A stretch of DNA of 24,000 nucleotides from Spirochaetota bacterium (lineage in GTDB: Bacteria; Spirochaetota; UBA4802; UBA5550): assembly GCA_963664815.2 (NCBI GenBank), contig CAXXHB010000003.1, positions 3,877,191 through 3,901,190 of the forward strand. Reading direction: 5' to 3'. Both the position numbers and the translations under genes were made by a program. The notes under the pieces were generated by a model that was given only the letters and a program-made list of their open reading frames with translations, had not been told where the DNA came from and did no database searches. Positions 3,243-17,368 of the stretch are shown here, piece by piece. Every line of letters starts with the position of its first letter. The stretch's first letter is position 1.

Positions 3243-3689
3243 CTATTTATTATCCCTGCTCTTTTCCCTTTTTCTCCATGTATCCAAAGTCACGTATTCA
3301 TCATCTGTTATGTCAAGAATGGTAATCTTATAAGTAACGGGATCTACATGGAAAAAGTAGTATGTTTCAAACCTGTCGCTGCCGCTGTACCCCACCTGTA
3401 CAGAGTAACCGCGCCTCTTTTCATCATTATCAATTATTGATGTGACCCCCTTCCTGTGGAGGGAAACTTCTTCTATATTTTTTTGCGCCTCTTTATACTC
3501 CGTGAGTTCAGATATCCTTTTGATTATCTCATCCTGTACTTCAGCAGAGATATTTTTCTTACCTCTCCATTCATCTTCCGCTCGGGGTTCCGCGCCCGGG
3601 AGGAATCCTTCACTCTTTCTGACGGAATTTCCCGCACATCCGGAAATCATAAAGAGAACAATTATGGATAGAAATACTGCTTTCTGCAT
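3243..3689 (-). CDS. Lipoprotein, unknown function
   Basis: Signal peptide with lipobox (LFMISGC). There is a 6-nt gap to the upstream gene. Confidence 0.7.
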   Translation of the reverse strand: MQKAVFLSIIVLFMISGCAGNSVRKSEGFLPGAEPRAEDEWRGKKNISAEVQDEIIKRISELTEYKEAQKNIEEVSLHRKGVTSIIDNDEKRRGYSVQVGYSGSDRFETYYFFHVDPVTYKITILDITDDEYVTLDTWRKREKSRDNK

Positions 3690-6107: not shown

Positions 6108-7514
6108 TTACAACTCAACCAGTATTCCGCAGCTTACAAATCCCTCATAGAAAGGTTTAACACCCGCTCTTTCATATATAATCCCGTAATCACCGCCAAT
6201 TGAAAAAGTAAAATTATCACTGCTTACAGTTAACGCCAATCCGCCGTCTACAATTGGATCGATAATTGTTTTCTCTTTTTCAACATTGAGGCTTGTATAT
6301 TTAACCTTAGAATACGATTCCCCTATCTTCGCGAAAGGAAATAACGAAAACCAGTCGCCCAGCCACAGGTGATACCCTGCGTATAACGTAACCGGTATAA
6401 AATTCAATGTATCAGTACTCTTTTCTTCTATGCCGGGGAGTGTTATATAACTGGAACTTATCCCTGCTTCAAAATTCTGAAACATGAAATTTCTGAGTCC
6501 AATATTCACAGTTCCGCCATAGCCGGGATCAAACATCTTTCCAAGATCACCGGAAAGAACAAACACCGCGGGCGCGGCAGAAATAACAAGCTGCAGTGGC
6601 ATTAGAACACGCACCTTTGGAGATTCAGTGTCAAGATCATCAACTGCCGTTATCTCCAGCTTGTATACCGAAATGTTCCCGGGAACAGTGTATTCAGGTG
6701 TTTTAACTGTAGCTATCTTTCCCTTCTCTTTCTCATCCCTGTTGTATATGTTATAACCTTTAATCTTGCCATCCGGGTCATTAGAATCATTCCACCTGAC
6801 TGTAAGTTTTTTATCTTTTGTTTCACGCACAATACCTTCAGGTTCCGTTGGTGCGATGTTCTTTGTCTTTATCTTCAGTTCGTTGCTTGGAGGAGACTCG
6901 TAGTCGTCGCTGTCAACGCTTGTAACAATAATAAAATAGCTGCTGTTACTTGAAAGTTTTTTAATAGTAACGGATTTACTCCCCGTACTTTCGATAAGTT
7001 CATACTTATCTTTATCATTTTTCTTTATGTAAATATTATATCTCTTAACTTTGTCATATGGAGGCTCCCATGTTAGTGACACCCTGTCTGTCTCCGTATC
7101 TCCGACAACCTGCAGACCCGAGGGATTTTTCTCTGCGATGAATAGTACCGCGCTTCTTTTAAGGGTAAACTCCTCCGGCTTATATAAATCGAGCCTGAAA
7201 GTGTAGCTCTCCCTGTCCTCATCAACCATGTATGCTACAACACCCTTCCCGTCTCGCTTCTGGATATAAATCTTTCCCATCTTAAGCTCGGTGTAGAGTA
7301 TGCGAATTATCTCGCTACGTGGAATCGATTTAAGTTTTTTATCGGTCATACGGACGGTTACAGATGTTGCCCCGTCGGAGACTATGGTACCATTTATAAT
7401 TGAACCATCCTTTAAAAACACAGCTTCCGCGCTGAGAGGCTTTTCTGAAACAGAAGCAAAAAACCATGACACAACCGCTATAGCAAGCAGTTTCCCGAAC
7501 ACTTTGAGATTCAT
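6108..7514 (-). CDS. Exported protein with an N-terminal small beta domain, 2 FN3 domains and a C-terminal outer-membrane beta-barrel anchor (paralogue of 14138-15553)
   Basis: Signal peptide ...SAEA. FN3 signatures are VSLTWEPPYDKVKRYNIYIK...YFIIVTSVD and LTVRWNDSNDP..IKGYNIYNR...YKLEITAVD. The last ~160 aa show alternating hydrophobic/aromatic strands. A GAGGA lies 8 nt upstream. Confidence 0.75.
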   Translation of the reverse strand: MNLKVFGKLLAIAVVSWFFASVSEKPLSAEAVFLKDGSIINGTIVSDGATSVTVRMTDKKLKSIPRSEIIRILYTELKMGKIYIQKRDGKGVVAYMVDEDRESYTFRLDLYKPEEFTLKRSAVLFIAEKNPSGLQVVGDTETDRVSLTWEPPYDKVKRYNIYIKKNDKDKYELIESTGSKSVTIKKLSSNSSYFIIVTSVDSDDYESPPSNELKIKTKNIAPTEPEGIVRETKDKKLTVRWNDSNDPDGKIKGYNIYNRDEKEKGKIATVKTPEYTVPGNISVYKLEITAVDDLDTESPKVRVLMPLQLVISAAPAVFVLSGDLGKMFDPGYGGTVNIGLRNFMFQNFEAGISSSYITLPGIEEKSTDTLNFIPVTLYAGYHLWLGDWFSLFPFAKIGESYSKVKYTSLNVEKEKTIIDPIVDGGLALTVSSDNFTFSIGGDYGIIYERAGVKPFYEGFVSCGILVEL

Positions 7515-7808
7515 AATAGTTTCCTCAAAAAAAATTATATATTTATACCGGTTTTCATATGAAGTTTTATATCTACACCTTTATAGTAGAAATAAACTTC
7601 AAAAATTACCAAATTATTCAGAATCGTTTTACAGAAAATAAATGTAAAGGTTTAATTTACCCCTGAATACTTTTTTTAAAGTCTATTAACAGCACTATTA
7701 AACAACAGGCCCCCGAATGTTGTCATCGGAGGATATTTAACCGTATCAGCAATCAAAAGGATTCATCTTTACCATGTACGATTATACTTAAATAGCAAAA
7801 AATAAATC

Positions 7809-7839
7809 GCCCAGATTTATAATACTGTGCATTTTTATT
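7809..7839 (+). repeat. Degenerate copy of the palindrome-plus-T-run element (copy 0)
   Basis: GCCCAGATTTATAATACTGTGC followed by ATTTTTATT. It matches copy 1 at about three quarters of positions when aligned by eye, in the same orientation. Confidence 0.5.
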
Positions 7840-8011
7840 GCACGGCATTATAAAAAATACCTGTTTTGTTTTTCGACGGTTGTGGCTTCTGCGGCGGTTT
7901 TGGATCTCTTATATTCACCTTCAACCATCACTATGAGCCCCGGCTGACGATATAAAAATCAGTTTCTTCACCTGAAAAATGTATACTTCATCGATGTATC
8001 GTCTAAAATAC

Positions 8012-8042
8012 GTCCAAATTTATAAACCTGGACATTTTTTTT
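8012..8042 (+). promoter_or_regulatory. 22-bp AT-rich palindrome followed by T8 (copy 1), about 90 nt upstream of the AraC-type gene
   Basis: GTCCAAATTTATAAACCTGGAC (18 of 22 positions self-complementary), then A and TTTTTTTT. Closely related copies are at 10270 and 15678. Confidence 0.6.
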
Positions 8043-8123
8043 AATCGCAATATTAATAAATAGACAGAATATGCTGTTCACATAAAAAATTGTAATTAAA
8101 TACAATAGAAAGAATAGAGACTT

Positions 8124-9221
8124 ATGCTTGGAAATATAATATTATACAGTGAATTTGCCTGCGGAGTAATACTGCTCTTATTTGTGGTACTACAACTTAC
8201 ATACAGAAACAGGGAGTTTATCAACTATAACCTTGCCGGCCTTTACTTCTGCCTTTCATATGTTATTCTTATATTCTGGTCTTTCAAATCAGGGGTAATC
8301 CTGCACCTTCCCTGGATGTTTTACACTGATATAAGTATGGCTTTTGCTATCGGCCCTTTTGTATATTTTTATATTAAAACGGTAATCGGTCTGAAAACAG
8401 ACTCTCTCTTCAGGTACATGATTCATTTCATCCCGGCCTTTGTTTCGTTCATTGCCATAATAATATATAACATTACTGATAATTCACTCACTGACTATTA
8501 CATAAAAAACAATATCGATTACCCGGTTTATCATCTGAGTCACTTCATTGGTATAATCGAATTAATATCAAGTTTCGTTATGATATCATACATAGTTCCA
8601 GCCACAGGAAAACTTTACATGCTGCTGCGAGACAGAAGCCACAAATCGCTGAAAGAACTTAAAATTGTCTTCCGCTACCTGTCGCTTGTTATTTTCTTCA
8701 GCGGAATGATGCTGCTTGCCGGTATAATAAGGAATAATGTACTCAATGACATAGCTGTATATTTTCTGACTCTCCTTGCCGTCTGGTACTTTATATTCTC
8801 TTTCCGCTACCCTGATTTTACTCAGAAAGCCATCAAAGAAGCAAGGACTGTAAGATATAAAAGTTCTATAATTAACGGTATAGATTCTGATACCGTACTC
8901 AGACGTCTTGATGAACTGATGGAGGATGAAAAGGTTTTCGCGGATGAGGATATTACCCTGCAGAAACTTAGCGGTGAACTGATGATTACGCCTCACCAGC
9001 TTTCAAATATACTTAACTCAAAGCGTAAAATAAACTTCCGGACGCTTATTAATTCTTACAGAGTTAAAGAAGCCATAAGCCTGATGAAACAGTTCCCCGA
9101 TAAAAATATACTGGAGATAGCGCTGGATAGCGGTTTTAGCTCAAAGTCTTCTTTCAATTCTGTTTTCCTCAAAATAACAGGGATTGCCCCCAGAGATTAC
9201 AGAAAGAATATCAGACTGTAG
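8124..9221 (+). CDS. AraC-family transcriptional regulator with a polytopic N-terminal membrane domain
   Basis: The first ~230 aa contain about 6-7 hydrophobic helices. The C-terminal ~100 aa form a typical AraC/XylS double HTH (LQKLSGELMITPHQLSNIL...EIALDSGFSSKSSFNSVFLKITGIAPRDYRK). Confidence 0.85.
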   Translation: MLGNIILYSEFACGVILLLFVVLQLTYRNREFINYNLAGLYFCLSYVILIFWSFKSGVILHLPWMFYTDISMAFAIGPFVYFYIKTVIGLKTDSLFRYMIHFIPAFVSFIAIIIYNITDNSLTDYYIKNNIDYPVYHLSHFIGIIELISSFVMISYIVPATGKLYMLLRDRSHKSLKELKIVFRYLSLVIFFSGMMLLAGIIRNNVLNDIAVYFLTLLAVWYFIFSFRYPDFTQKAIKEARTVRYKSSIINGIDSDTVLRRLDELMEDEKVFADEDITLQKLSGELMITPHQLSNILNSKRKINFRTLINSYRVKEAISLMKQFPDKNILEIALDSGFSSKSSFNSVFLKITGIAPRDYRKNIRL

Positions 9222-9248
9222 AAGCGCAGCACACTACGTTTCTACAGT
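9215..9248. terminator. Strong hairpin between convergent genes, overlapping the stop codon of the AraC gene
   Basis: ACTGTAGAAGCG / CGTTTCTACAGT form a 12-bp stem with one G-T wobble pair and a 10-nt loop. There is no clear T-run, so function as a terminator is inferred from position only. Confidence 0.45.
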
Positions 9249-9260
9249 CTCTCATCAAAG

Positions 9261-10076
9261 TTATTGTTCCTGTTTAACCTTCTGTATAACTGCTTTATCT
9301 TTTATTTTAAATTTCTGAATTGCTATATCAATAAGACCCTTCTGGAACTCGCCGGAGTTACCCCCATTGTCTTTATAGAATTTTGATATTACCCACCATA
9401 GTTTCTGCTCCCCTTCGTCCCCCATGAAATCAGGATATCCGGCATTGTTAAATCTGATTGCAACTGCCTTGCATACTTTCAGCTGTTCAGTCTGGTCCAC
9501 TGATCCCCATGTAAAACCGTCATAATACCCGATTGAATTTTTAAGAGTTGGAGCTGATTCTTCTGTTGCGGATTCTTCAGCATTCCGGTTTACCTGTATT
9601 ACAGCATAAAGGACTTTCTTTGTCTTGCCGCTTACGGCAAAAGCCGTTACACACTCCATACCGCTGGCCTTGCCTTTATATATATAAGCCGGACCGTCAT
9701 CTGAATTTTCAACTTCATCCGCCTTTGGATAAGCGCTCAGAAGTCTGGCAAGAGGTGTACCATTGTTTATCCCCCTTGATGTTGTGAAACTATTTTTTAA
9801 CGCAACCTTAACAAGAGTACCGTCATCATTAAACTCCGCTTCTCCATCTTCCCATGTGTAGGTATTATTATTTTCCCATGAGCCCCCTTTAAATTTCTTA
9901 GTGAAAGATTGCTTTGTTTCATTAGGAACATTTATTTCAACTTTACCGCTTTTAATCCTCAGGTCATTTACTCCGATTGAAGCCGCGCCGGCCGCCATAA
10001 CCTCAGTATTTACCAATGAAAATGCAAACATTGAAGATGCGCCTAAAAACATCAGTTTTCGTAAAAATCCTTTCAT
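9261..10076 (-). CDS. Exported hypothetical protein
   Basis: Signal peptide MKGFLRKLMFLGASSMFAFSLVNTEVMAAGA. AGGAG lies 6 nt upstream of the ATG. It is divergent from the second AraC paralogue. Confidence 0.7.
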   Translation of the reverse strand: MKGFLRKLMFLGASSMFAFSLVNTEVMAAGAASIGVNDLRIKSGKVEINVPNETKQSFTKKFKGGSWENNNTYTWEDGEAEFNDDGTLVKVALKNSFTTSRGINNGTPLARLLSAYPKADEVENSDDGPAYIYKGKASGMECVTAFAVSGKTKKVLYAVIQVNRNAEESATEESAPTLKNSIGYYDGFTWGSVDQTEQLKVCKAVAIRFNNAGYPDFMGDEGEQKLWWVISKFYKDNGGNSGEFQKGLIDIAIQKFKIKDKAVIQKVKQEQ

Positions 10077-10269
10077 TTCTGTCTCCTTTTATTGAATCTT
10101 TTTATTTCATCAGATAACTTGCATTTGAAAAAACTTCCATTTATCTGATTATTTCATTGCAGTTTATAGCATAGAATAACCACAGATTTACCATATTGAT
10201 CCGGTAAATTAATCTGCATCATTATCACAGTATTCATAATTATTCATAACACACCTGTACACTCTAATC

Positions 10270-10300
10270 GTACAAGTTTATAAATCTGGACGCTTTTTTT
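10270..10300 (+). promoter_or_regulatory. 22-bp AT-rich palindrome followed by T7 (copy 2), about 96 nt upstream of the second AraC-type gene
   Basis: GTACAAGTTTATAAATCTGGAC, then GC and TTTTTTT. It has the same orientation and nearly the same distance to the ATG as copy 1. A second shared block TAGACA(A/G)AAT lies at 8061 and 10324. Confidence 0.6.
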
Positions 10301-10387
10301 ATTTTTCAGAGCAGGAATTAAGTAGACAAAATCTATACATTATCAAATAAACGTTGAAATTCTATTTTCAGGAAGTGTGTTGGCCTG

Positions 10388-11491
10388 ATGTTTGAAAGTA
10401 TTGTTAAATATAGTGAATTCACCTGCGGGGTTATACTCTTAATCTTTGCTGTAATACAGATTATATATAAAAACAGGAAATTTATCAACTATAATCTTGC
10501 CGGGATTTATTTCTGTCTTTCATATGTTATTCTCACATTCTGGGCTTTCAAATCGTGGATGATTTATCATGTTCCATGGCTTATTTTCACAGATATGGCA
10601 GCGGCGTTTGCCATAGGGCCATTTGTTTATTTTTACATGAAAACCGTTCTGGGGATCAACACCAAATCTGTTATTAAATACACGTTCCACTTCATCCCGG
10701 CCGTAGTTGTATTTTGTACTATAATTGCCATTAATATAATTGATGGCCATATTGTACGCTATTATATGCAGTTTCCCGGTGAATACCCGGAATATAACCT
10801 TAATCAATCAGTCCGCATTATCGATTTTATATCCAATTTCTACATGCTGCTGTATTTAACATTTACTGTTAAAATCATTTATGATCTTCTGAAAAAGAGG
10901 AATCAAAAATCAATCAAAGAGCTTAAGATCATATTAAAGTATATGTTATTTGTTGTTATATTCAGCCTCATGATGCTTATGGCAAGCATCACAGGGAGCA
11001 ACCTGCTTAATATAATTTCCATTTATCTTCTTACATTGGCTGGTATATGGTACTTTATATTCTCATTCCGCTACCCGGAGTTTACACAGAAAGCCATCAG
11101 GGAGGCAAAGTTTATACGCTATGAGAATACAATTCTGAATGGTATCGACGCAAATGTAGTTCTTGAACACCTTGATTACCTTATGAATGAGGAAAAAATA
11201 TATGTAGATGACGAACTTACATTGCAGAAACTGAGTGCCCAGCTGATGATTACCTCTCACCAGCTGTCGAAAATACTCAATTCAAAGAGAAAGGTCAATT
11301 TCAGAACCCTGGTGAATTCATACCGCATTAAAGAAGCAATGAGCCAGATTGCCAGTTATCCGGATAAAACAATTCTTGAGATTGCCCTTGCCAGCGGGTT
11401 TAATTCAAAGTCATCATTCAACGGTGTTTTTCTGAAAAGTACGGGGGTTACTCCCAGCGATTACAGGAAAAGCCTGACAGCAGTCCGGTAG
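10388..11491 (+). CDS. AraC-family transcriptional regulator with a polytopic N-terminal membrane domain (paralogue of 8124-9221)
   Basis: It is collinear with the 8124-9221 product along its whole length. Well over half of positions are identical in the stretches I aligned by eye, for example YSEF.CGVILL.F, FINYNLAG.YFCLSYVIL.FW.FKS, FAIGPFVYFY and WYFIFSFRYP.FTQKAI.EA. The C-terminal AraC HTH is the same. Confidence 0.85.
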   Translation: MFESIVKYSEFTCGVILLIFAVIQIIYKNRKFINYNLAGIYFCLSYVILTFWAFKSWMIYHVPWLIFTDMAAAFAIGPFVYFYMKTVLGINTKSVIKYTFHFIPAVVVFCTIIAINIIDGHIVRYYMQFPGEYPEYNLNQSVRIIDFISNFYMLLYLTFTVKIIYDLLKKRNQKSIKELKIILKYMLFVVIFSLMMLMASITGSNLLNIISIYLLTLAGIWYFIFSFRYPEFTQKAIREAKFIRYENTILNGIDANVVLEHLDYLMNEEKIYVDDELTLQKLSAQLMITSHQLSKILNSKRKVNFRTLVNSYRIKEAMSQIASYPDKTILEIALASGFNSKSSFNGVFLKSTGVTPSDYRKSLTAVR

Positions 11492-11559
11492 ATATGGTAG
11501 ATATGCAGACCAAAAACAAGGTTACGGGCCTGCATACCTGTGATATAAAAAACATTTAT

Positions 11560-14088
11560 CTACTTAACAAAAATTGAATAAGCAACCGTGCCGCCGGCAA
11601 GTATAGTTGGCGATCCATTATGCCAGTAAACGGCCTTCGTTCCATTCGTACCTGCGATGTAAATATCACACGATTGCGGAACTGCTATTGAATAAGCATT
11701 AGTTCCCCCGAACAGAGATTCATCAGAAATACAGTCATTTGACCCGGCATCATAAACCCAGTATTTTGCACTACCGGTAGCATCTGTCCCGACTATATGT
11801 ACCTTGCCATTCTGGATTAATACAGCATTTGCTGAAGATGCTGCTGATGCGGTTGCATTTAAAATAAACCTTGCCCCGTTTTTCCAGTAACATGGTTTTA
11901 TACCTCCATCATCACAAATACCGGCTACGAAAATGTCACTGCCGTTTACTGCGATTGAATTTGCTGCCGTACCCGAGAGAGAGTTAAACACACCATTAAG
12001 CCAGTAACCTGCAGCTGCATTGTTGTTACCCGAGATATAGACATCCGAACCTGATACAATTACCGAGGATGTTCTTGTACTTGTGCTGTAATTCACTGCA
12101 AGCTGTGTTTCAGTTGGTATTGTTGCTGCAGATGTCGTTGTCTGCCAGTATAATGCAGTCTGGTAATAACCTGACCAGTTTCCTTTTCCTCCTGTAATAT
12201 ACACATCATTTCCGCTTACGAATATTGATGAAGTACTATAATGTGCACCGGTACCGCTGATACCGACCCATGGAAGATGGACTGCGACATTATTTTTATA
12301 GTAAACACTGTTCTGATAACCACCATCCCATTGTGTTCCTGCTATATAAACATCAGTGCCTGACACAAAAATTGAGTATGCACCGGGAATTCCCGATGTC
12401 CATCCTCCGAGATCAAGAGTATATCCTGCATTATTTATCCAGAACTGGTTTGTGCCTGTTCCGCATATATATGTTATAAAAGGCACCCACTTGGCAAACA
12501 GGGTAATATCAGATGTGCCCATTGTAATGCTCTGTCCGGCTGTATATGTTGTACCTGAATCTCTGGACCATCCTGCAAAGGAATAACCGGCTTTTACCAT
12601 ATTCCCTGAATTACTTTTTATTATTACAGAGGACCCTGCCTCATAATTATTACCATCTGCGGGCAGAGACCCGCTGTCTCTGCCAAAATCATCATATATC
12701 ACTTTATAAGCAGCGTTTACAGTCCATACTGCGTACATAGTAATATTTGCCGTTCCCATAGGGAAAGCGGCTCCCGGCGCATAGGTAGTTGAATTATAAC
12801 TCCACCCGCCGAATGTATACCCGGACTTCGACAGAACAGGTGATCCTATATTGTTCTTTACAGTCACAATATCCCCCGGCAGGTATGACTGCGCAGAGGG
12901 GGGTGTCCCGTCACCACCGTTTTTATCGTATGTAACAGTATAGGTAACGGCAGATGTTACTGTTGCTGTACATGCCGCGGAATACCCGCCATCCTGCGTT
13001 GTTACAGTTATAACAGCTGATCCTGCAGCAACAGCAGTTATCATCCCGCCGCTGTCAACCGATGCTACAAGACTGTTGCTGCTTTTCCATACCAGGTTCT
13101 GGTCGGTAGCATTTGACGGAGTAATAGTCGCAGTCAGTTGCCCCTGGTTCCCCGTCTGAACGGTAACTGTTGAAGGTGAGATACTCACCCCTGTTACCGC
13201 GACCGGTGAAGATTCAACCGTTACAGAGATGCCTGCCGTATAACTGCCGTCAACTGTTGTTGCAGTGACGGTGGCGCTGCCGGCCGATTTCCCTGTTACA
13301 TTGCCGTAATTATCCACAGCCGCAACAGCTGAATTGCTGCTTGACCATGTAAGGTTCTGGTTAGTGGCATTTACCGGGGCAATCGTAGCGAACAGTGTTT
13401 CTGATTTCCCCGTTGCAATTACCGTTGATGTTTTATTCAGAGTTACACCGGTAACACTCACTGGGGTCAAAGTGACGGTAAAAAGGCAGGATGATGTAAA
13501 ACCACCATCAGCTGTGGTAACCATTATCCTCGCCGTCCCCGTGCTGCTCCCGGTCGTAACAACACCGTTTCCGTCAACTGATGCTACAAGGCTGTTGCTG
13601 CTGGACCACACGAGAGTCTGGTTTGTTGCGGCAGATGGCAACACTACTGCTGACAACGTCTCCGAGTTCCCGGTAAGAAGACAGGATATCCCCTTGTTCA
13701 GTGAAACACCCGTCACTGCTACCGGTTTTTCAACAACGTTAACAGTGCATTGCGCTGCAAAATTTCCCTCTTCGGTTGTCACTGTTATAACCGCCTGTTT
13801 GGTCTCGCCATGCATTACGCCTGAAACTACAGAAACAAGACCGCTGCTGCTTACCTGTGCAACAGATGTATCACTGCTGGACCACGTTACATTTTTATTG
13901 GCGGTTTTTGACGGGGAGACAACAGCAGAAAGCTGTTCGCTCCCGCCGCTGACAATTGTAGTTGTCCTTTTAAGACCCACTCCGTCAACCGGGCCTGTAA
14001 AATAGTTCTGCGCACTGTAGAATGAATCACTGCATCCCGCGAAGAGTATTGCTGCCATGATCAGTAAATTATATATCTTTTTTTTCAT
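11560..14088 (-). CDS. Large mosaic surface lipoprotein with 4 Big_2 Ig-like domains, 2 Listeria-Bacteroides (Flg_new) repeats and a C-terminal 6-repeat propeller-like domain
   Basis: Lipobox ILFAGCSD. There are four ~85-aa repeats with the pattern VTGV.L....(T/S)G....L.A...P..ATNQ.L.W.SSN..VA.VD..G.V. There are two repeats of the form YTVTYD.NGG...P......G......(S)GYTFGGWS....Y..G......ANITMYAVW. Six C-terminal repeats have the form YW.NG...(A)YSI.VSG.DVYI.G. GGAG lies 6 nt before the ATG at 14088, so I prefer it over 14100. Confidence 0.8.
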   Translation of the reverse strand: MKKKIYNLLIMAAILFAGCSDSFYSAQNYFTGPVDGVGLKRTTTIVSGGSEQLSAVVSPSKTANKNVTWSSSDTSVAQVSSSGLVSVVSGVMHGETKQAVITVTTEEGNFAAQCTVNVVEKPVAVTGVSLNKGISCLLTGNSETLSAVVLPSAATNQTLVWSSSNSLVASVDGNGVVTTGSSTGTARIMVTTADGGFTSSCLFTVTLTPVSVTGVTLNKTSTVIATGKSETLFATIAPVNATNQNLTWSSSNSAVAAVDNYGNVTGKSAGSATVTATTVDGSYTAGISVTVESSPVAVTGVSISPSTVTVQTGNQGQLTATITPSNATDQNLVWKSSNSLVASVDSGGMITAVAAGSAVITVTTQDGGYSAACTATVTSAVTYTVTYDKNGGDGTPPSAQSYLPGDIVTVKNNIGSPVLSKSGYTFGGWSYNSTTYAPGAAFPMGTANITMYAVWTVNAAYKVIYDDFGRDSGSLPADGNNYEAGSSVIIKSNSGNMVKAGYSFAGWSRDSGTTYTAGQSITMGTSDITLFAKWVPFITYICGTGTNQFWINNAGYTLDLGGWTSGIPGAYSIFVSGTDVYIAGTQWDGGYQNSVYYKNNVAVHLPWVGISGTGAHYSTSSIFVSGNDVYITGGKGNWSGYYQTALYWQTTTSAATIPTETQLAVNYSTSTRTSSVIVSGSDVYISGNNNAAAGYWLNGVFNSLSGTAANSIAVNGSDIFVAGICDDGGIKPCYWKNGARFILNATASAASSANAVLIQNGKVHIVGTDATGSAKYWVYDAGSNDCISDESLFGGTNAYSIAVPQSCDIYIAGTNGTKAVYWHNGSPTILAGGTVAYSIFVK

Positions 14089-14137
14089 ATTATGCTCCAT
14101 TCCTGCCCTGTTTTCACGTAACGACAGCAGATTACAT

Positions 14138-15553
14138 CTAAAAAATTATACAGGCTCCTAATGAGCCGTTTACGAAGCTCATTCTGCCGCTTTTCTGAAA
14201 TATTGCTGAATAATCAGCTCCACCGTAAATATCAACCTTTTCAGTCAGTTCAAACTGAAGATAAGCTCCGGCGGAAACCATGGGATTGAAACTGCTTTTA
14301 TCAGTTGTACTCGTAATAAGCGGATCAGATGGATTCCTGACCAGATATTTAATTACGTTATAACTTCCCCCCGATTTAAGTACCGGTCTTAATGAGAACT
14401 TATAGAAAAGCAGCATAGTATACTCAATATCAAAAAGAACAGGCACCATCACCATGTTGTCTATCTCTCCGGTATAACTGAATATCCAGTATCCGGTTTC
14501 AATACCCAGACTGAAGCTCTTACCCGAAGCGCCGGCATCAATCAACCCGCCATAGCCATATGAAGCCATTTCACTCATAACACCCAGTGGGTAAATATAC
14601 GATACAGCCCCCCTGATATATATTTTATACCCCGCGTCATATACAGCTTTCATCTCCTTCGACTCTGTAAAGATATCATTTACCGCCACTACCGAAAACC
14701 GGTGTCTACCCTCTGCCGGAAAATTCTTTATAATAAACTCACTGCCGGGAGATGTTCCCTTCTTTTTTCTCTCACCGTTTTCAGTTTCATATATTGCATA
14801 TGATTTTACCCTGCTCAGCGGGTCACCCACATCTGTCCATGAAAATGCCAGCGTTACGCTCTTCCCGTCCGCAGATAGTTTTTCAGCAATATTAAAGTTA
14901 CCCGGAGGCTCGGGGAGCGTATTGACTATAACCTTTTCGCTGGGGAGAGACTCCTCACCTGTATCGGCTATGGCTGTCGCGTAGATTTCATATGTCCAGC
15001 TTTTCTGAAGATTTTTCAGCGTAGTGGATAAATCTGATGTCTCTTCTGCGAGTTTAAACTTCTCATCTTTATTTTTTACATCACGTAAATATATCCTGTA
15101 AAACTTTGCAGGTTTAAATGGCGGACTCCATGTCACTTCGATAGAAACTGTCGAAGCATTCCCTTTGAGATCGGTGGGATTCGTACGGGCAATAAACATC
15201 ACCTTCTTACGCGGAACAGTAAACTCTTCTGGGCTGATAAGATCTTTTCGGAAAAAATAATTATCCCTGTCCTCATCAACCTGATAGCCCTCTACTACCT
15301 CCCCGCTTGTCAACCGCGCAAAAACCTTTCCAAGGTAAACTTCAGTATATATTATTCTCAGGATATCCCCGCGAACAACACCTTCATATGCACCGTCTTC
15401 TTTCTTCACTGTTAGTGTTGCTATTTCATCTTTAACGATAGATCCTTTAATGATAGAACCATCTTTTTTAAAAATATACTCGGCGCTTCCTGCCACCGGA
15501 ATACAGACAACAATCACTAACAGAATTACTACTTGTGAAAAAAAATACTTCAT
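14138..15553 (-). CDS. Exported protein with an N-terminal small beta domain, 2 FN3 domains and a C-terminal beta-barrel anchor (paralogue of 6108-7514)
   Basis: Same architecture and collinear similarity to the 6108-7514 product (F.KDGSII.G.IV.D....TV; YQVDEDRDNYFFR / YMVDEDRESYTFR; PEEFT; VTWSPPF..AKFYRIYL). It ends in a C-terminal Phe (GACIIF), typical of OM beta-barrels. GAGGGAG lies 5 nt upstream of the ATG. Confidence 0.75.
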   Translation of the reverse strand: MKYFFSQVVILLVIVVCIPVAGSAEYIFKKDGSIIKGSIVKDEIATLTVKKEDGAYEGVVRGDILRIIYTEVYLGKVFARLTSGEVVEGYQVDEDRDNYFFRKDLISPEEFTVPRKKVMFIARTNPTDLKGNASTVSIEVTWSPPFKPAKFYRIYLRDVKNKDEKFKLAEETSDLSTTLKNLQKSWTYEIYATAIADTGEESLPSEKVIVNTLPEPPGNFNIAEKLSADGKSVTLAFSWTDVGDPLSRVKSYAIYETENGERKKKGTSPGSEFIIKNFPAEGRHRFSVVAVNDIFTESKEMKAVYDAGYKIYIRGAVSYIYPLGVMSEMASYGYGGLIDAGASGKSFSLGIETGYWIFSYTGEIDNMVMVPVLFDIEYTMLLFYKFSLRPVLKSGGSYNVIKYLVRNPSDPLITSTTDKSSFNPMVSAGAYLQFELTEKVDIYGGADYSAIFQKSGRMSFVNGSLGACIIF

Positions 15554-15677
15554 TAAAACTCCCTCTTTTGAAAATGAACATTTTATATTTTTCCATTTTG
15601 ATTTTTTGCGATATAACCTTAAATTATACTAAACCGCATTATAAGGAGTTCTATTAACATTTTTAATTGATTCAGTC

Positions 15678-15707
15678 GTACAAATTTATAAATTTGGACT
15701 TTTTTTT
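15678..15707 (+). promoter_or_regulatory. 22-bp AT-rich palindrome followed by T8 (copy 3, the most symmetric copy), about 125 nt upstream of the minus-strand FN3/barrel gene
   Basis: GTACAAATTTATAAATTTGGAC (20 of 22 positions self-complementary) followed directly by TTTTTTTT. It has the same plus-strand orientation as the other copies, although no plus-strand gene follows. Confidence 0.6.
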
Positions 15708-16001
15708 AACCTGTTGCCTTATAAATATTATTTAATTTGAAAAAATATGGTTTTTTACTGAATGTTTAAACGTTATCCCGGGCTCAAAATGTCAGGAATT
15801 TACCATTTAAAATTGTTTTAAATGAAAATATATGTCTAAAAACAATTAATTGGAAATAAATTGCCGGTAATTCCGGAATCACTAATTTCTGCGGAGAGAA
15901 GTTTTCATATACATGCCGTAATCAAACAAGGATGACAATCGAACCATTCAATCAGGATATTCTCGCATTTAATGAGGATAATGGATATAGAGCGACCTGA
16001 A

Positions 16002-16988
16002 TTAAGACCGTACAATAGTTTTACTTTCATATTTCGGGCCTCTGAACCCCAGGTCAACCATCACTCCATAAGTCAAAGCAAGACGGAGGTTACCGAAAAA
16101 AGCCTCGCTCCCTTTCATCCCGTCAAACATACTGTCAATACGGTCTTTCCATAAGTATTCCGTTTCCGACATAACATAATCTGTTGAGGAATTTTCATTA
16201 AATGCTTTTATTATTGATTGCCTGAAGTTCTTCATAAACTCAACATGATCATCAAAGACAATATTAATATCATCACCGGACAGTATCCCGAAATGGCAAA
16301 GACCCACAAGCTCAGGGCTCATAATTCTTAACTTTTCCATGCTCGACATGTAATCATCATATTTGAAATTAGGGGGCATTGATGTGGGGGTTGAGAGCAT
16401 CCTGTCACCGGTATAAATTGTCCCCATCGCTTCACCTGCAAACATAAAGAGAGTCCTGTCACCAATCATTACGGAAGGAGAACAATGATCGGCGGTATGC
16501 CCGGGTGTAAAAACAAGTTTAACCCTCTCCCCGCCAGCAAATTCAACAGGAAGGAAACCATCCGGTTCCACTATATGGAACACCTCATCGGGGATATAAT
16601 CCATTGTACCGATAAACTTCCCGAAAGTGGTTTTTGCTCCACGCAGGTGGCCTGCCGCATCCTGCAATAATCCCTTTGTTATGCTGTTAGTATATATTTT
16701 AAAATCGCTGTTTATATCCTTAAAACGGTTCCATAACTCGGCGCATCCGCCGCCATGATCAAAGTGGTAATGACTTAAAGTAATGCCAACAAGGGATTCA
16801 GGAGCAATACCGTGCCGTTTTAGTGATTTTAATACAACGTCAACATTATCAGAAGTTCCTATATCCATGAGGAGCGACTTTTCACCGTCACTATAGCAGA
16901 AAGCTCCTGTTATTGTTCCCATATCAAACTGCATAGTATCAACAAGGTAGGCGTTCCCCATCCTGCACTCTTTTCTTATATAGGCCAT
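16002..16988 (-). CDS. MBL-fold metallo-hydrolase, substrate unknown
   Basis: It has the HxHxDH motif (LSHYHFDHGGG) and a downstream TPGHTADH, with further His/Asp positions in MBL order. The ORF-track start at 17015 is a TTG. The ATG at 16988 has GGAG 7 nt upstream. It lies 89 nt downstream of hgcB on the same strand. Confidence 0.85.
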   Translation of the reverse strand: MAYIRKECRMGNAYLVDTMQFDMGTITGAFCYSDGEKSLLMDIGTSDNVDVVLKSLKRHGIAPESLVGITLSHYHFDHGGGCAELWNRFKDINSDFKIYTNSITKGLLQDAAGHLRGAKTTFGKFIGTMDYIPDEVFHIVEPDGFLPVEFAGGERVKLVFTPGHTADHCSPSVMIGDRTLFMFAGEAMGTIYTGDRMLSTPTSMPPNFKYDDYMSSMEKLRIMSPELVGLCHFGILSGDDINIVFDDHVEFMKNFRQSIIKAFNENSSTDYVMSETEYLWKDRIDSMFDGMKGSEAFFGNLRLALTYGVMVDLGFRGPKYESKTIVRS

Positions 16989-17077
16989 TATATAACTCCA
17001 TGTAATGTTTTCCAATCACCCGGTCAATCTCTCCCTTCAAAGCAGCAGAGAGGGCTAAAAAGACATGCTCAAATACA

Positions 17078-17368
17078 CTAACAGCAGTTTCCCGAAGAAC
17101 TATTACAGTCGCAAGCCGGTTCGGTTCCTCTTATCATTCCGTTAATAACAGCTGCGGCACACCCTACTCCCGCCTTGACTGATATTGCCCCGAAGCTGCA
17201 GTTTTTTTCACACGCGCCGCATTCCATACACCTGTCTTTATTCATTATGGATACTTTTCTGTTTTCCATTTTAAACACGGGATGTGGGCAAACCTCCATG
17301 CACATCCCACAACCTGTACACTTTTCAGGAAAAACCTGTAAAGTTGTAATGTTCTTTAAATATATCAT
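17078..17368 (-). CDS. hgcB: HgcB, the 2x[4Fe-4S] ferredoxin of the mercury-methylation pair
   Basis: 96 aa. The first cluster motif is C17-x2-C-x2-C-x3-CP. The second is CMECGACEKNC, which carries the hgcB-diagnostic C(M/I)ECGA signature. A conserved GVGCA cysteine and the terminal vicinal CC (GNCC-stop) are present. The start overlaps the hgcA stop as ATGA. Confidence 0.92.
   Translation of the reverse strand: MIYLKNITTLQVFPEKCTGCGMCMEVCPHPVFKMENRKVSIMNKDRCMECGACEKNCSFGAISVKAGVGCAAAVINGMIRGTEPACDCNSSSGNCC

Follow-up and report, generated by a model that had tools for sequence, protein, structure and literature searches.

A 24-nt palindromic element recurs in the intergenic regions of two paralogous gene modules within a 24,000-nt stretch of DNA from a Spirochaetota bacterium (contig CAXXHB010000003.1; hereafter the window). 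We conclude that this is a real, conserved cis-regulatory element. Judging from sequence comparisons, it is probably the operator of the locally encoded AraC-type one-component regulators, which carry seven predicted transmembrane (7-TM) helices, and it would serve both autoregulation and the control of surface and outer-membrane protein genes. Membrane-bound AraC one-component regulators are common in some environmental bacteria. The class has been described (PMC2386152), and this class description is all that the searched literature yielded, with no operator, DNA site or regulon. The palindrome is therefore, as far as that literature shows, the first candidate operator for membrane-embedded AraC regulators.

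A palindrome in the spacers of two paralogous modules

The region holds two paralogous modules, AraC1/FN3A and AraC2/FN3B, that have been rearranged and duplicated. The genes on which the argument turns are listed here with their window coordinates.

8124-9221, plus strand: AraC1, with a 7-TM N-terminal domain and a two-helix-turn-helix (HTH) AraC DNA-binding domain (domain search, AlphaFold2 model); the proposed binder
10388-11491, plus strand: AraC2, a paralog 59% identical to AraC1 with near-identical predicted recognition helices (sequence comparison)
6108-7514, minus strand: FN3A, a secreted FN3 and outer-membrane protein (OMP) beta-barrel protein, divergent from AraC1 (domain search); candidate target
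9261-10076, minus strand: a 271-aa secreted protein, divergent from AraC2 (open reading frame [ORF] position, domain search); candidate target
14138-15553, minus strand: FN3B (domain search); candidate target that forms, with the Big_2/Flg_new gene, a pair (11560-15553) downstream of copy 3 of the element
11560-14100, minus strand: a Big_2/Flg_new surface protein (domain search); candidate target

The conserved unit spans 24 nt, a 22-bp palindrome flanked by C and G (C-GTCCAGATTTATAAATTTGGAC-G), and occurs in three strong copies and one degenerate copy. Labels such as L026 denote loci retrieved for comparison.

8011-8034, no strand assigned: proposed palindromic operator copy 1, CGTCCAAATTTATAAACCTGGACA, ending 90 nt before the AraC1 ATG; orthologous copies are in place in L026-L032, L039 and L048
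10269-10292, no strand assigned: proposed palindromic operator copy 2, CGTACAAGTTTATAAATCTGGACG; it precedes the AraC2 ATG by 96 nt and the divergent gene of the 271-aa secreted protein by 193 nt
15677-15700, no strand assigned: proposed palindromic operator copy 3, CGTACAAATTTATAAATTTGGACT, which precedes the FN3B ATG by 124 nt; counterparts at L026 8927, L030 7074, L048 1364 and L029 3276
7808-7831, no strand assigned: degenerate copy 0, CGCCCAGATTTATAATACTGTGCA, 294 nt before the FN3A ATG

The sequence-only reading that first drew attention to this region had described four copies. For the strong ones, the palindrome coordinates, sequences and adjoining T-runs proved correct when checked on the sequence, as did the distances to the two AraC starts and the placement of copies 0 and 3 upstream of the FN3 genes. 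The count of four is generous, as the fourth is degenerate, scoring 15-19 bits with a weight matrix built from 14-18 family members, compared with 31-36 bits for the other window copies, and it has no counterpart in L039, which has the closest FN3A/AraC spacer. Copy 0 occupies the position where other genomes have an FN3-proximal copy, and it is probably a weak or decaying site of that kind. That the element is found nowhere else in the window was also confirmed: the pattern GTMCAARTTTATAAAYYTGGAC matches only at 8012, 10270 and 15678 (chance expectation 0.02; reached in 0 of 100 shuffles), and the weight matrix, at a cut-off of 7-8 bits, revealed no further site in the window, copy 0 aside, or in approximately 150 kb of related loci.

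An alignment of 21 copies gives the consensus CGTCCAGATTTATAAATTTGGACG, in which TTATAA is the sole fully invariant block. Each half-site reads C-G-T-C-C/T-A-G/A-A-T-T-T-A around the invariant TTATAA center that the two halves share, and the outer blocks are separated by about 16 bp, or 1.5 helical turns. Apart from a short TTCAGTC stretch, the flanks of the copies are unrelated, and only 24-32 nt are shared. A palindrome of the CRP/FNR type was also considered and rejected because neither the spacing nor the half-sites fit.

The palindrome accompanies 7-TM AraC genes in other genomes

Homologs of AraC1 number about 60 at 55-69% identity, with further ones at 37-45%. Nine independent loci (L026, L027, L029, L030, L032, L039, L048, L050 and L051) were fetched via AraC proteins 39-61% identical to AraC1, and their intergenic regions were compared, a check that the sequence-only reading had proposed. 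The palindrome lies upstream of the AraC gene in all nine, with its T-rich side towards AraC, while the spacers around it have diverged; even the L039 spacer aligns with that of the window only at the palindrome and at a block near FN3A. With the two window genes included, the element precedes 11 of 11 clade AraC genes examined, and its distance from the AraC start codon is 56-98 nt in 10 of them and 180 nt in L030. Every homolog that bears the element keeps the predicted recognition segments, TPHQLS...N and GF-x-SKSSF.

The gene arrangement recurs as well. Seven of the nine loci present a Big_2-type or other surface-protein gene, an FN3-barrel gene, a spacer and then AraC, and the order of FN3-barrel gene followed by Big_2 gene is also found in L026, L027, L030 and L032. 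As for the other two loci, L051 has a Big_5/Flg_new gene divergent from AraC, and L050 has neither arrangement. A second palindrome, matching copy 3 of the window and, by position, copy 0, precedes the FN3-barrel gene in L026, L029, L030 and L048. In L026 (9117-9560) and L030 (7288-7737), the FN3-proximal and AraC-proximal copies flank a conserved gene for a 147-149-aa lipoprotein of no Pfam family; copies 0 and 1 of the window have no such gene between them.

In L051 (39% identity) the element reads CGACCGGATTTATAATTCCGGTCA, wherein both half-sites are altered alike (GACCGG...CCGGTC), and such a paired change fits a dimeric binder that is changing its specificity. A further locus, L054 (40% identity), has only a doubtful relative of this variant.

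Searches with the DNA pattern return to the same regulator family

A second check that had been suggested, a motif scan, was run on the window, on the approximately 150 kb of related loci described above, and on genome and metagenome collections by pattern. It recovered AraC-linked sites, although most of the hits among genomes are due to chance. The genome scan used the strict pattern on one genome per species, in a collection that does not contain the source genome, and gave 22 hits, about the number expected by chance. About half of these are in AT-rich Bacteroidota, and most are chance matches that have no AraC homolog within the 8 kb examined. One hit (L014) lies 98 nt upstream of an AraC ortholog in a relative with a complete 4.9-Mb chromosome, OW818666.1. 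It is the single strict-pattern match in that chromosome, which points to a local rather than a global regulon. Another hit (L017), in a gammaproteobacterial metagenome-assembled genome (MAG), is located 76 nt after a gene for a 369-aa AraC homolog and 57 nt before an amidohydrolase gene.

The metagenome scan, for which a degenerate pattern was used, gave 16 loci. Seven of these abut a gene for a 7-TM AraC homolog, namely three orthologs and four distant relatives (26-32% identical). For the four distant homologs, the element follows the AraC stop codon and precedes a gene for an OMP beta-barrel, an acyltransferase or a lumazine-binding-like protein. The remaining nine loci comprise five matches within an ORF, two nearly ORF-free low-GC sequences and two unrelated intergenic sites. 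When both scans are taken together, 9 of 38 loci (7 independent) have the element at most 300 nt from a homolog of the 7-TM AraC family, including relatives of 26-39% identity, and chance cannot place so many beside one regulator family. In five independent cases, a distant AraC homolog adjoining the element was found through the DNA pattern alone.

Probable layout of the AraC promoters

A second block, TAGACA(A/G)AAT, had been reported in both AraC upstream regions and likened to a -35 element. It is indeed present at both places.

8061-8070, plus strand: TAGACAGAAT block, either an additional TAGAC half-site or, more probably, the -35 region of the AraC1 promoter (ortholog and paralog alignment)
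10323-10332, plus strand: TAGACAAAAT block, probable -35 region of the AraC2 promoter (ortholog and paralog alignment)

The block is kept in seven of nine aligned AraC upstream regions, and its form in L039 is TGGACAGAAA. Within the AraC upstream regions, TAGACA occurs 6 times where 0.26 occurrences are expected, and GACAGAA 6 times where 0.24 are expected. The distance from TAGACA to the AraC start codon is fixed at 61-65 nt in seven orthologous or paralogous genes, and this supports the assignment as a probable -35 of the AraC promoter. An AT-rich, -10-like AATAAA or TAATAA lies about 17 bp further downstream. Since the palindrome is 20-34 bp upstream of TAGACA, its center would then be at about -68 to -83, outside of the AraC transcript. 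Note that TAGAC is also one of the right half-site variants, such that a half-site role for TAGACAGAAT is inseparable from that of a plain -35.

When the FN3-proximal regions were compared, no comparable shared block was found and no promoter was identified. Upstream of FN3A, a block GTAGAAATAAACTTCAAAAATTACC (window about 7585-7615, 70-100 nt before the gene) is conserved with L039 and is probably the FN3A core promoter, distant from copies 0 and 1. A block GTCAGAAT or GTCAGGAAT, which resembles the AraC-side GACAGAAT, is present 60-93 nt to the right of three FN3-proximal copies (window 15789-15799, L026 about 9008-9020 and L048 about 1463-1475), and it may be either a remnant of a plus-strand promoter or an unannotated one.

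The palindrome as proposed operator of the 7-TM AraC regulators

In both AraC proteins the N-terminal part is long and hydrophobic, and an HTH_18 domain forms the C terminus. The AlphaFold2 model, with a predicted local distance difference test (pLDDT) score of 85.6, places seven long helices ahead of a canonical two-HTH AraC domain. Significant matches in the PDB were found only for the AraC DNA-binding domain (AraT, YesN, the AdpA-DNA complex and MarA), and a Foldseek search with the 7-TM domain returned only insignificant matches that are generically like G protein-coupled receptors.

We propose that the C-terminal two-HTH domains of AraC1 and AraC2 bind the 24-bp palindrome. Because the predicted recognition helices of the two proteins are almost identical, both should read all of the copies. 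The spacing of the outer blocks might accommodate a pair of MarA-like monomers at overlapping sites on opposite DNA faces, a putative geometry drawn from what is generally known of MarA and AdpA complexes; the A/T center that the blocks share resembles the A-rich second block of a marbox. With the promoter assigned as above, the palindrome center would take a position typical of a class-I activator or of an autoregulatory site, and the same site or a second copy would serve the divergent genes, whose products are secreted FN3/beta-barrel, Big_2 and other surface proteins. An envelope or external signal, sensed by the membrane domain, would switch the surface-protein operons together with the regulator's own gene. 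The analysis shows the element with its statistics, where it lies and how it is conserved, its link to this regulator family across lineages and the absence of selection for a hairpin; the identity of the binder, the choice between activation and repression, the promoter positions and the geometry are inferred.

Of the three explanations that had been offered for the element, the operator is the one favored by orthologous conservation and by the sequence-only scans; terminator or attenuator and dispersed repeat fare poorly, as described below. If it is correct, a 24-bp operator that travels with the family provides a handle for predicting regulons, here those of FN3/beta-barrel, Big_2 and other secreted proteins, and a basis for the design of binding and reporter assays. 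It also poses the question of how a membrane-tethered 7-TM sensor reads a palindromic site. No general concept is altered, as the system would consist of a regulator plus its operator.

Several observations weigh against this proposal. The evidence that links the AraC proteins to the palindrome is of one kind, association. AraC-family monomers usually read asymmetric sites of 17-20 bp, a textbook arrangement from which the compact 24-bp palindrome departs. The spacing between the palindrome and the -35-like block varies (20, 26 and 30-34 bp) without clean helical phasing, and the likely FN3A promoter is 200-400 nt away from copies 0 and 1. Two family members, P0088 (L049) and P0062 (L052), have no element in the DNA examined around each gene. 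Finally, a symmetric operator does not account for the fixed polarity of the T-tract, which even beside the FN3-proximal copies keeps its orientation and there faces away from the gene that they serve.

P0088 (L049 6001-7158) is a third 7-TM AraC paralog of the same genome, 28% identical and without the canonical element, whose gene lies upstream of DUF2860 and resistance-nodulation-division (RND)-type transporter genes. A doubtful relative of the palindrome, CGTTCGACCTTATAATCAAAGACG, follows its stop codon at L049 7172-7195.

Comparison with known regulators and sites

The arrangement resembles that of known AraC/XylS sites (AraC I1-I2/O, the MarA/SoxS/Rob marbox and AdpA sites) in several respects. 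The cognate regulator gene, here a proposed one, adjoins the site. The site is upstream of or beside a -35-like element, a putative one that in the window is assigned by sequence. The likely logic combines autoregulation with control of a divergent operon, and the modeled two-HTH fold is the canonical one of AraT, YesN, the AdpA-DNA complex and MarA. The two-block layout of the marbox is loosely like one half of the palindrome (GC-rich GTCC, about 7 nt, then A-rich TAAAT), which we regard as a lead. However, AraC/XylS sites are direct repeats or a single asymmetric box of 17-20 bp, whereas the window element is a compact, near-perfect 24-bp inverted repeat with a TTATAA center. Likewise, AraC/XylS regulators have a soluble ligand-binding or dimerization domain, whereas the putative binders described here have a 7-TM membrane domain.

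In this latter respect the proteins recall ToxR-type regulators, which join a DNA-binding domain directly to a sensor part embedded in the membrane and whose genes sit beside those of the secreted or envelope proteins that they presumably control. ToxR-type proteins differ in that they combine one transmembrane helix with an OmpR-type winged helix, whereas AraC1 and AraC2 would combine seven such helices with an AraC domain.

The polar T-tract

Each strong window copy is followed within 0-2 nt on its 3' side by a run of T, and the runs at window copies are T5-T8.

8035-8042, plus strand: T8 tract beside copy 1, on the AraC side (sequence)
10294-10300, plus strand: T7 tract beside copy 2 (sequence)
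15700-15707, plus strand: T8 tract beside copy 3, pointing away from FN3B (sequence)

Among 17 clade copies, the 20 nt to the right contain on average 12.6 T (63%), and the 20 nt to the left contain 6.7 A (34%), which is the background level; the polarity is seen in all of them. For copy 0 it is ambiguous, since its left side is A-rich too. The tract is shifted by about 10 nt in L026 and L030 (AraC-proximal copies) and in L050, and copies from distant lineages have no T-run. The tract may be an UP-like or bending element that separates the operator from the AraC -35 and that the FN3-proximal copies took over when they formed. It may instead reflect an unannotated plus-strand start site.

Other explanations

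A broader version of the operator proposal is conceivable but rather unlikely. According to this version, the palindrome is the signature operator of a widespread class of 7-TM AraC sensors that switch outer-membrane and surface genes, the class spanning spirochaete-like bacteria, a gammaproteobacterial MAG and several unclassified metagenome contigs. Two membrane-tethered MarA-like domains would bind as interdigitated monomers on opposite DNA faces, and in the spirochaete-like clade the T-tract joined to the operator would have a separate function as a directional bend, an UP-like contact or the start of an unannotated plus-strand RNA.

It is unlikely, but worth considering, that another dimeric DNA-binding protein encoded elsewhere binds the palindrome and that the AraC genes, like the surface-protein genes, are its targets and not the source of the binder. 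Compact symmetric palindromes with a flexible, TA-rich center are typical of simple HTH dimers and not of AraC monomers. Moreover, a good palindrome in L022 precedes a secreted-protein gene, and no AraC gene is present in the 6.5 kb examined there. However, the 7-TM AraC homolog is the sole gene that consistently adjoins the element across distant lineages, the nearby ArsR/HTH_5 and XRE/HTH_31 regulators are found in some loci only, and the low copy number speaks against a global factor. The L022 site (3480-3509 of this locus, in the Leptospirales MAG JBNKQE010000090.1) is an extended perfect palindrome, CCCTGTCCAATTTTATAAAATTGGACAGGG, located 107 nt upstream of the gene for a 320-aa secreted protein ending in Phe, and it neighbors the same CdhD-like/ferredoxin gene pair that is found at window 17078-18537.

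We consider it improbable that the AT-rich center, with TATAAA or TATAAT on either strand, serves a bidirectional core promoter as its -10, the T/A-tract being an UP-like element. The TTATAA invariant among the 21 copies is indeed a near-consensus -10 on both strands, and on the minus strand an A-tract lies upstream of it. Nevertheless, there is no conserved -35 at 16-18 bp upstream, where the plus-strand flanks are variable and the minus-strand flanks are A/T homopolymer. The conserved outer CGTCCAG/CTGGACG blocks, which persist in genomes of about 50% GC (L041 and L042), would be left unexplained, and the separate TAGACA at a fixed distance from the AraC ATG would mark a promoter downstream of the palindrome. 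Promoters of the sigma-54, sigma-28 and extracytoplasmic function (ECF) types were compared by eye, and the conserved positions do not fit them. A Bacteroidota-type -7 promoter (TAnnTTTG), prompted by the occurrence of TAAATTTG in the element, was dropped because the window genes have strong Shine-Dalgarno sequences and because conservation resides in the outer GTCCAG blocks.

The suggestion that the element is an AU-rich intrinsic terminator, or a leader attenuator, of short plus-strand transcripts must be judged very improbable. The element shares with Rho-independent terminators an inverted repeat that gives way, after 0-2 nt, to 5-8 consecutive T on one strand, and the run always follows the repeat on the plus strand. 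A few copies also form good hairpins (L051, -13.2 kcal/mol; L032, -10.9 kcal/mol; the AraC-proximal copy of L026, -9.9 kcal/mol). In contrast to terminators, however, the stems are AU-rich, often mismatched and not maintained. The window copies fold in context at -4.1 to -6.1 kcal/mol, no better than shuffled sequences (z of -0.3 to -1.3), and their 24-nt cores alone at -1.3 to -5.3 kcal/mol. The 21 cores range from 0 to -13.5 kcal/mol, most of them between -1 and -5, and the weakest stems (-1.3 to -4.3 kcal/mol) belong to the copies whose T7 is cleanest. By comparison, the hairpins between convergent genes of the window are far stronger (-17 to -24 kcal/mol).

Covariation provides no additional case for an RNA stem. 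Two central G-C pairs (10/27 and 11/26) are broken in 6-7 of the 21 copies, and 82.4% of cells are paired in the alignment versus 79.9% in column shuffles. Double changes occur at three stem pairs, and a symmetric protein site explains these equally well. Because mismatches of both kinds are present (C.A on one strand, A.C on the other), neither transcript is favored. The genomic context is no more favorable to a terminator: every copy is in a divergent or upstream spacer whose upstream neighbors are all on the minus strand, such that no plus-strand gene or transcription unit precedes it; the probable AraC -35 is downstream of the palindrome; and the copies of distant lineages lack the T-run. 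A scan with a consensus terminator missed the elements, and an Rfam search of the whole window at a permissive threshold gave only a chance-level hit to a eukaryotic long noncoding RNA. The weak hairpins, the broken core G-C pairs and the missing plus-strand gene upstream are the reasons for which we set this explanation aside.

Least tenable of all is a small mobile or dispersed repeat family, such as repetitive extragenic palindromic (REP) or miniature inverted-repeat transposable element (MITE)-like sequences that landed in the spacers: several copies do share a polarity within 8 kb of a rearranged and duplicated module, but only 24-32 nt are common to them, with no terminal repeats or target duplications and mostly unrelated flanks, no more copies exist in the approximately 150 kb of related DNA, the complete 4.9-Mb relative has one strict match, and the position relative to the AraC start is conserved among proteins only 39-61% identical to AraC1, such that low copy number and the tie to one gene family leave it unsupported.

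Neighboring genes and other features of the window

A Leptospira-type domain, NF047433, is found at the N terminus of both FN3 proteins, and FN3A ends in an OMP beta-barrel. This domain, the clear Shine-Dalgarno sequences and the lipoprotein-like signal peptides suggest that the DNA comes from an uncultured diderm of the spirochaete kind. Within the Big_2 surface-protein gene, tandem DNA repeats of about 258 nt (window 13054-13629, 65-79% identity) correspond to repeated Big_2 domains. The strong hairpins mentioned above are located between the convergent pairs AraC1/271-aa gene (9215-9250) and AraC2/Big_2 gene (11500-11545). Clean U-tracts are missing there, and the hairpins probably act as bidirectional terminators.

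FN3B and the gene for a metallo-beta-lactamase-fold protein are 448 nt apart. The latter belongs to a conserved four-gene cluster (window 16002-18889) that in related genomes, with synteny in L026, L029, L030 and L032, always adjoins the AraC/FN3 module. The other three genes encode a 96-aa 4Fe-4S ferredoxin, a CdhD-like membrane protein and a regulator of the ArsR/HTH_5 type.

One metagenome contig matches the window without a difference. A second metagenome contig, from Logan ERR12035211 (L003), matches window 7761-9957 at 99.95% and diverges at window 9957 (L003 2198), inside the gene for the 271-aa protein, so that it encodes a 320-aa product followed by a ribonucleotide reductase gene; the divergence is either a strain-level rearrangement or an assembly chimera.

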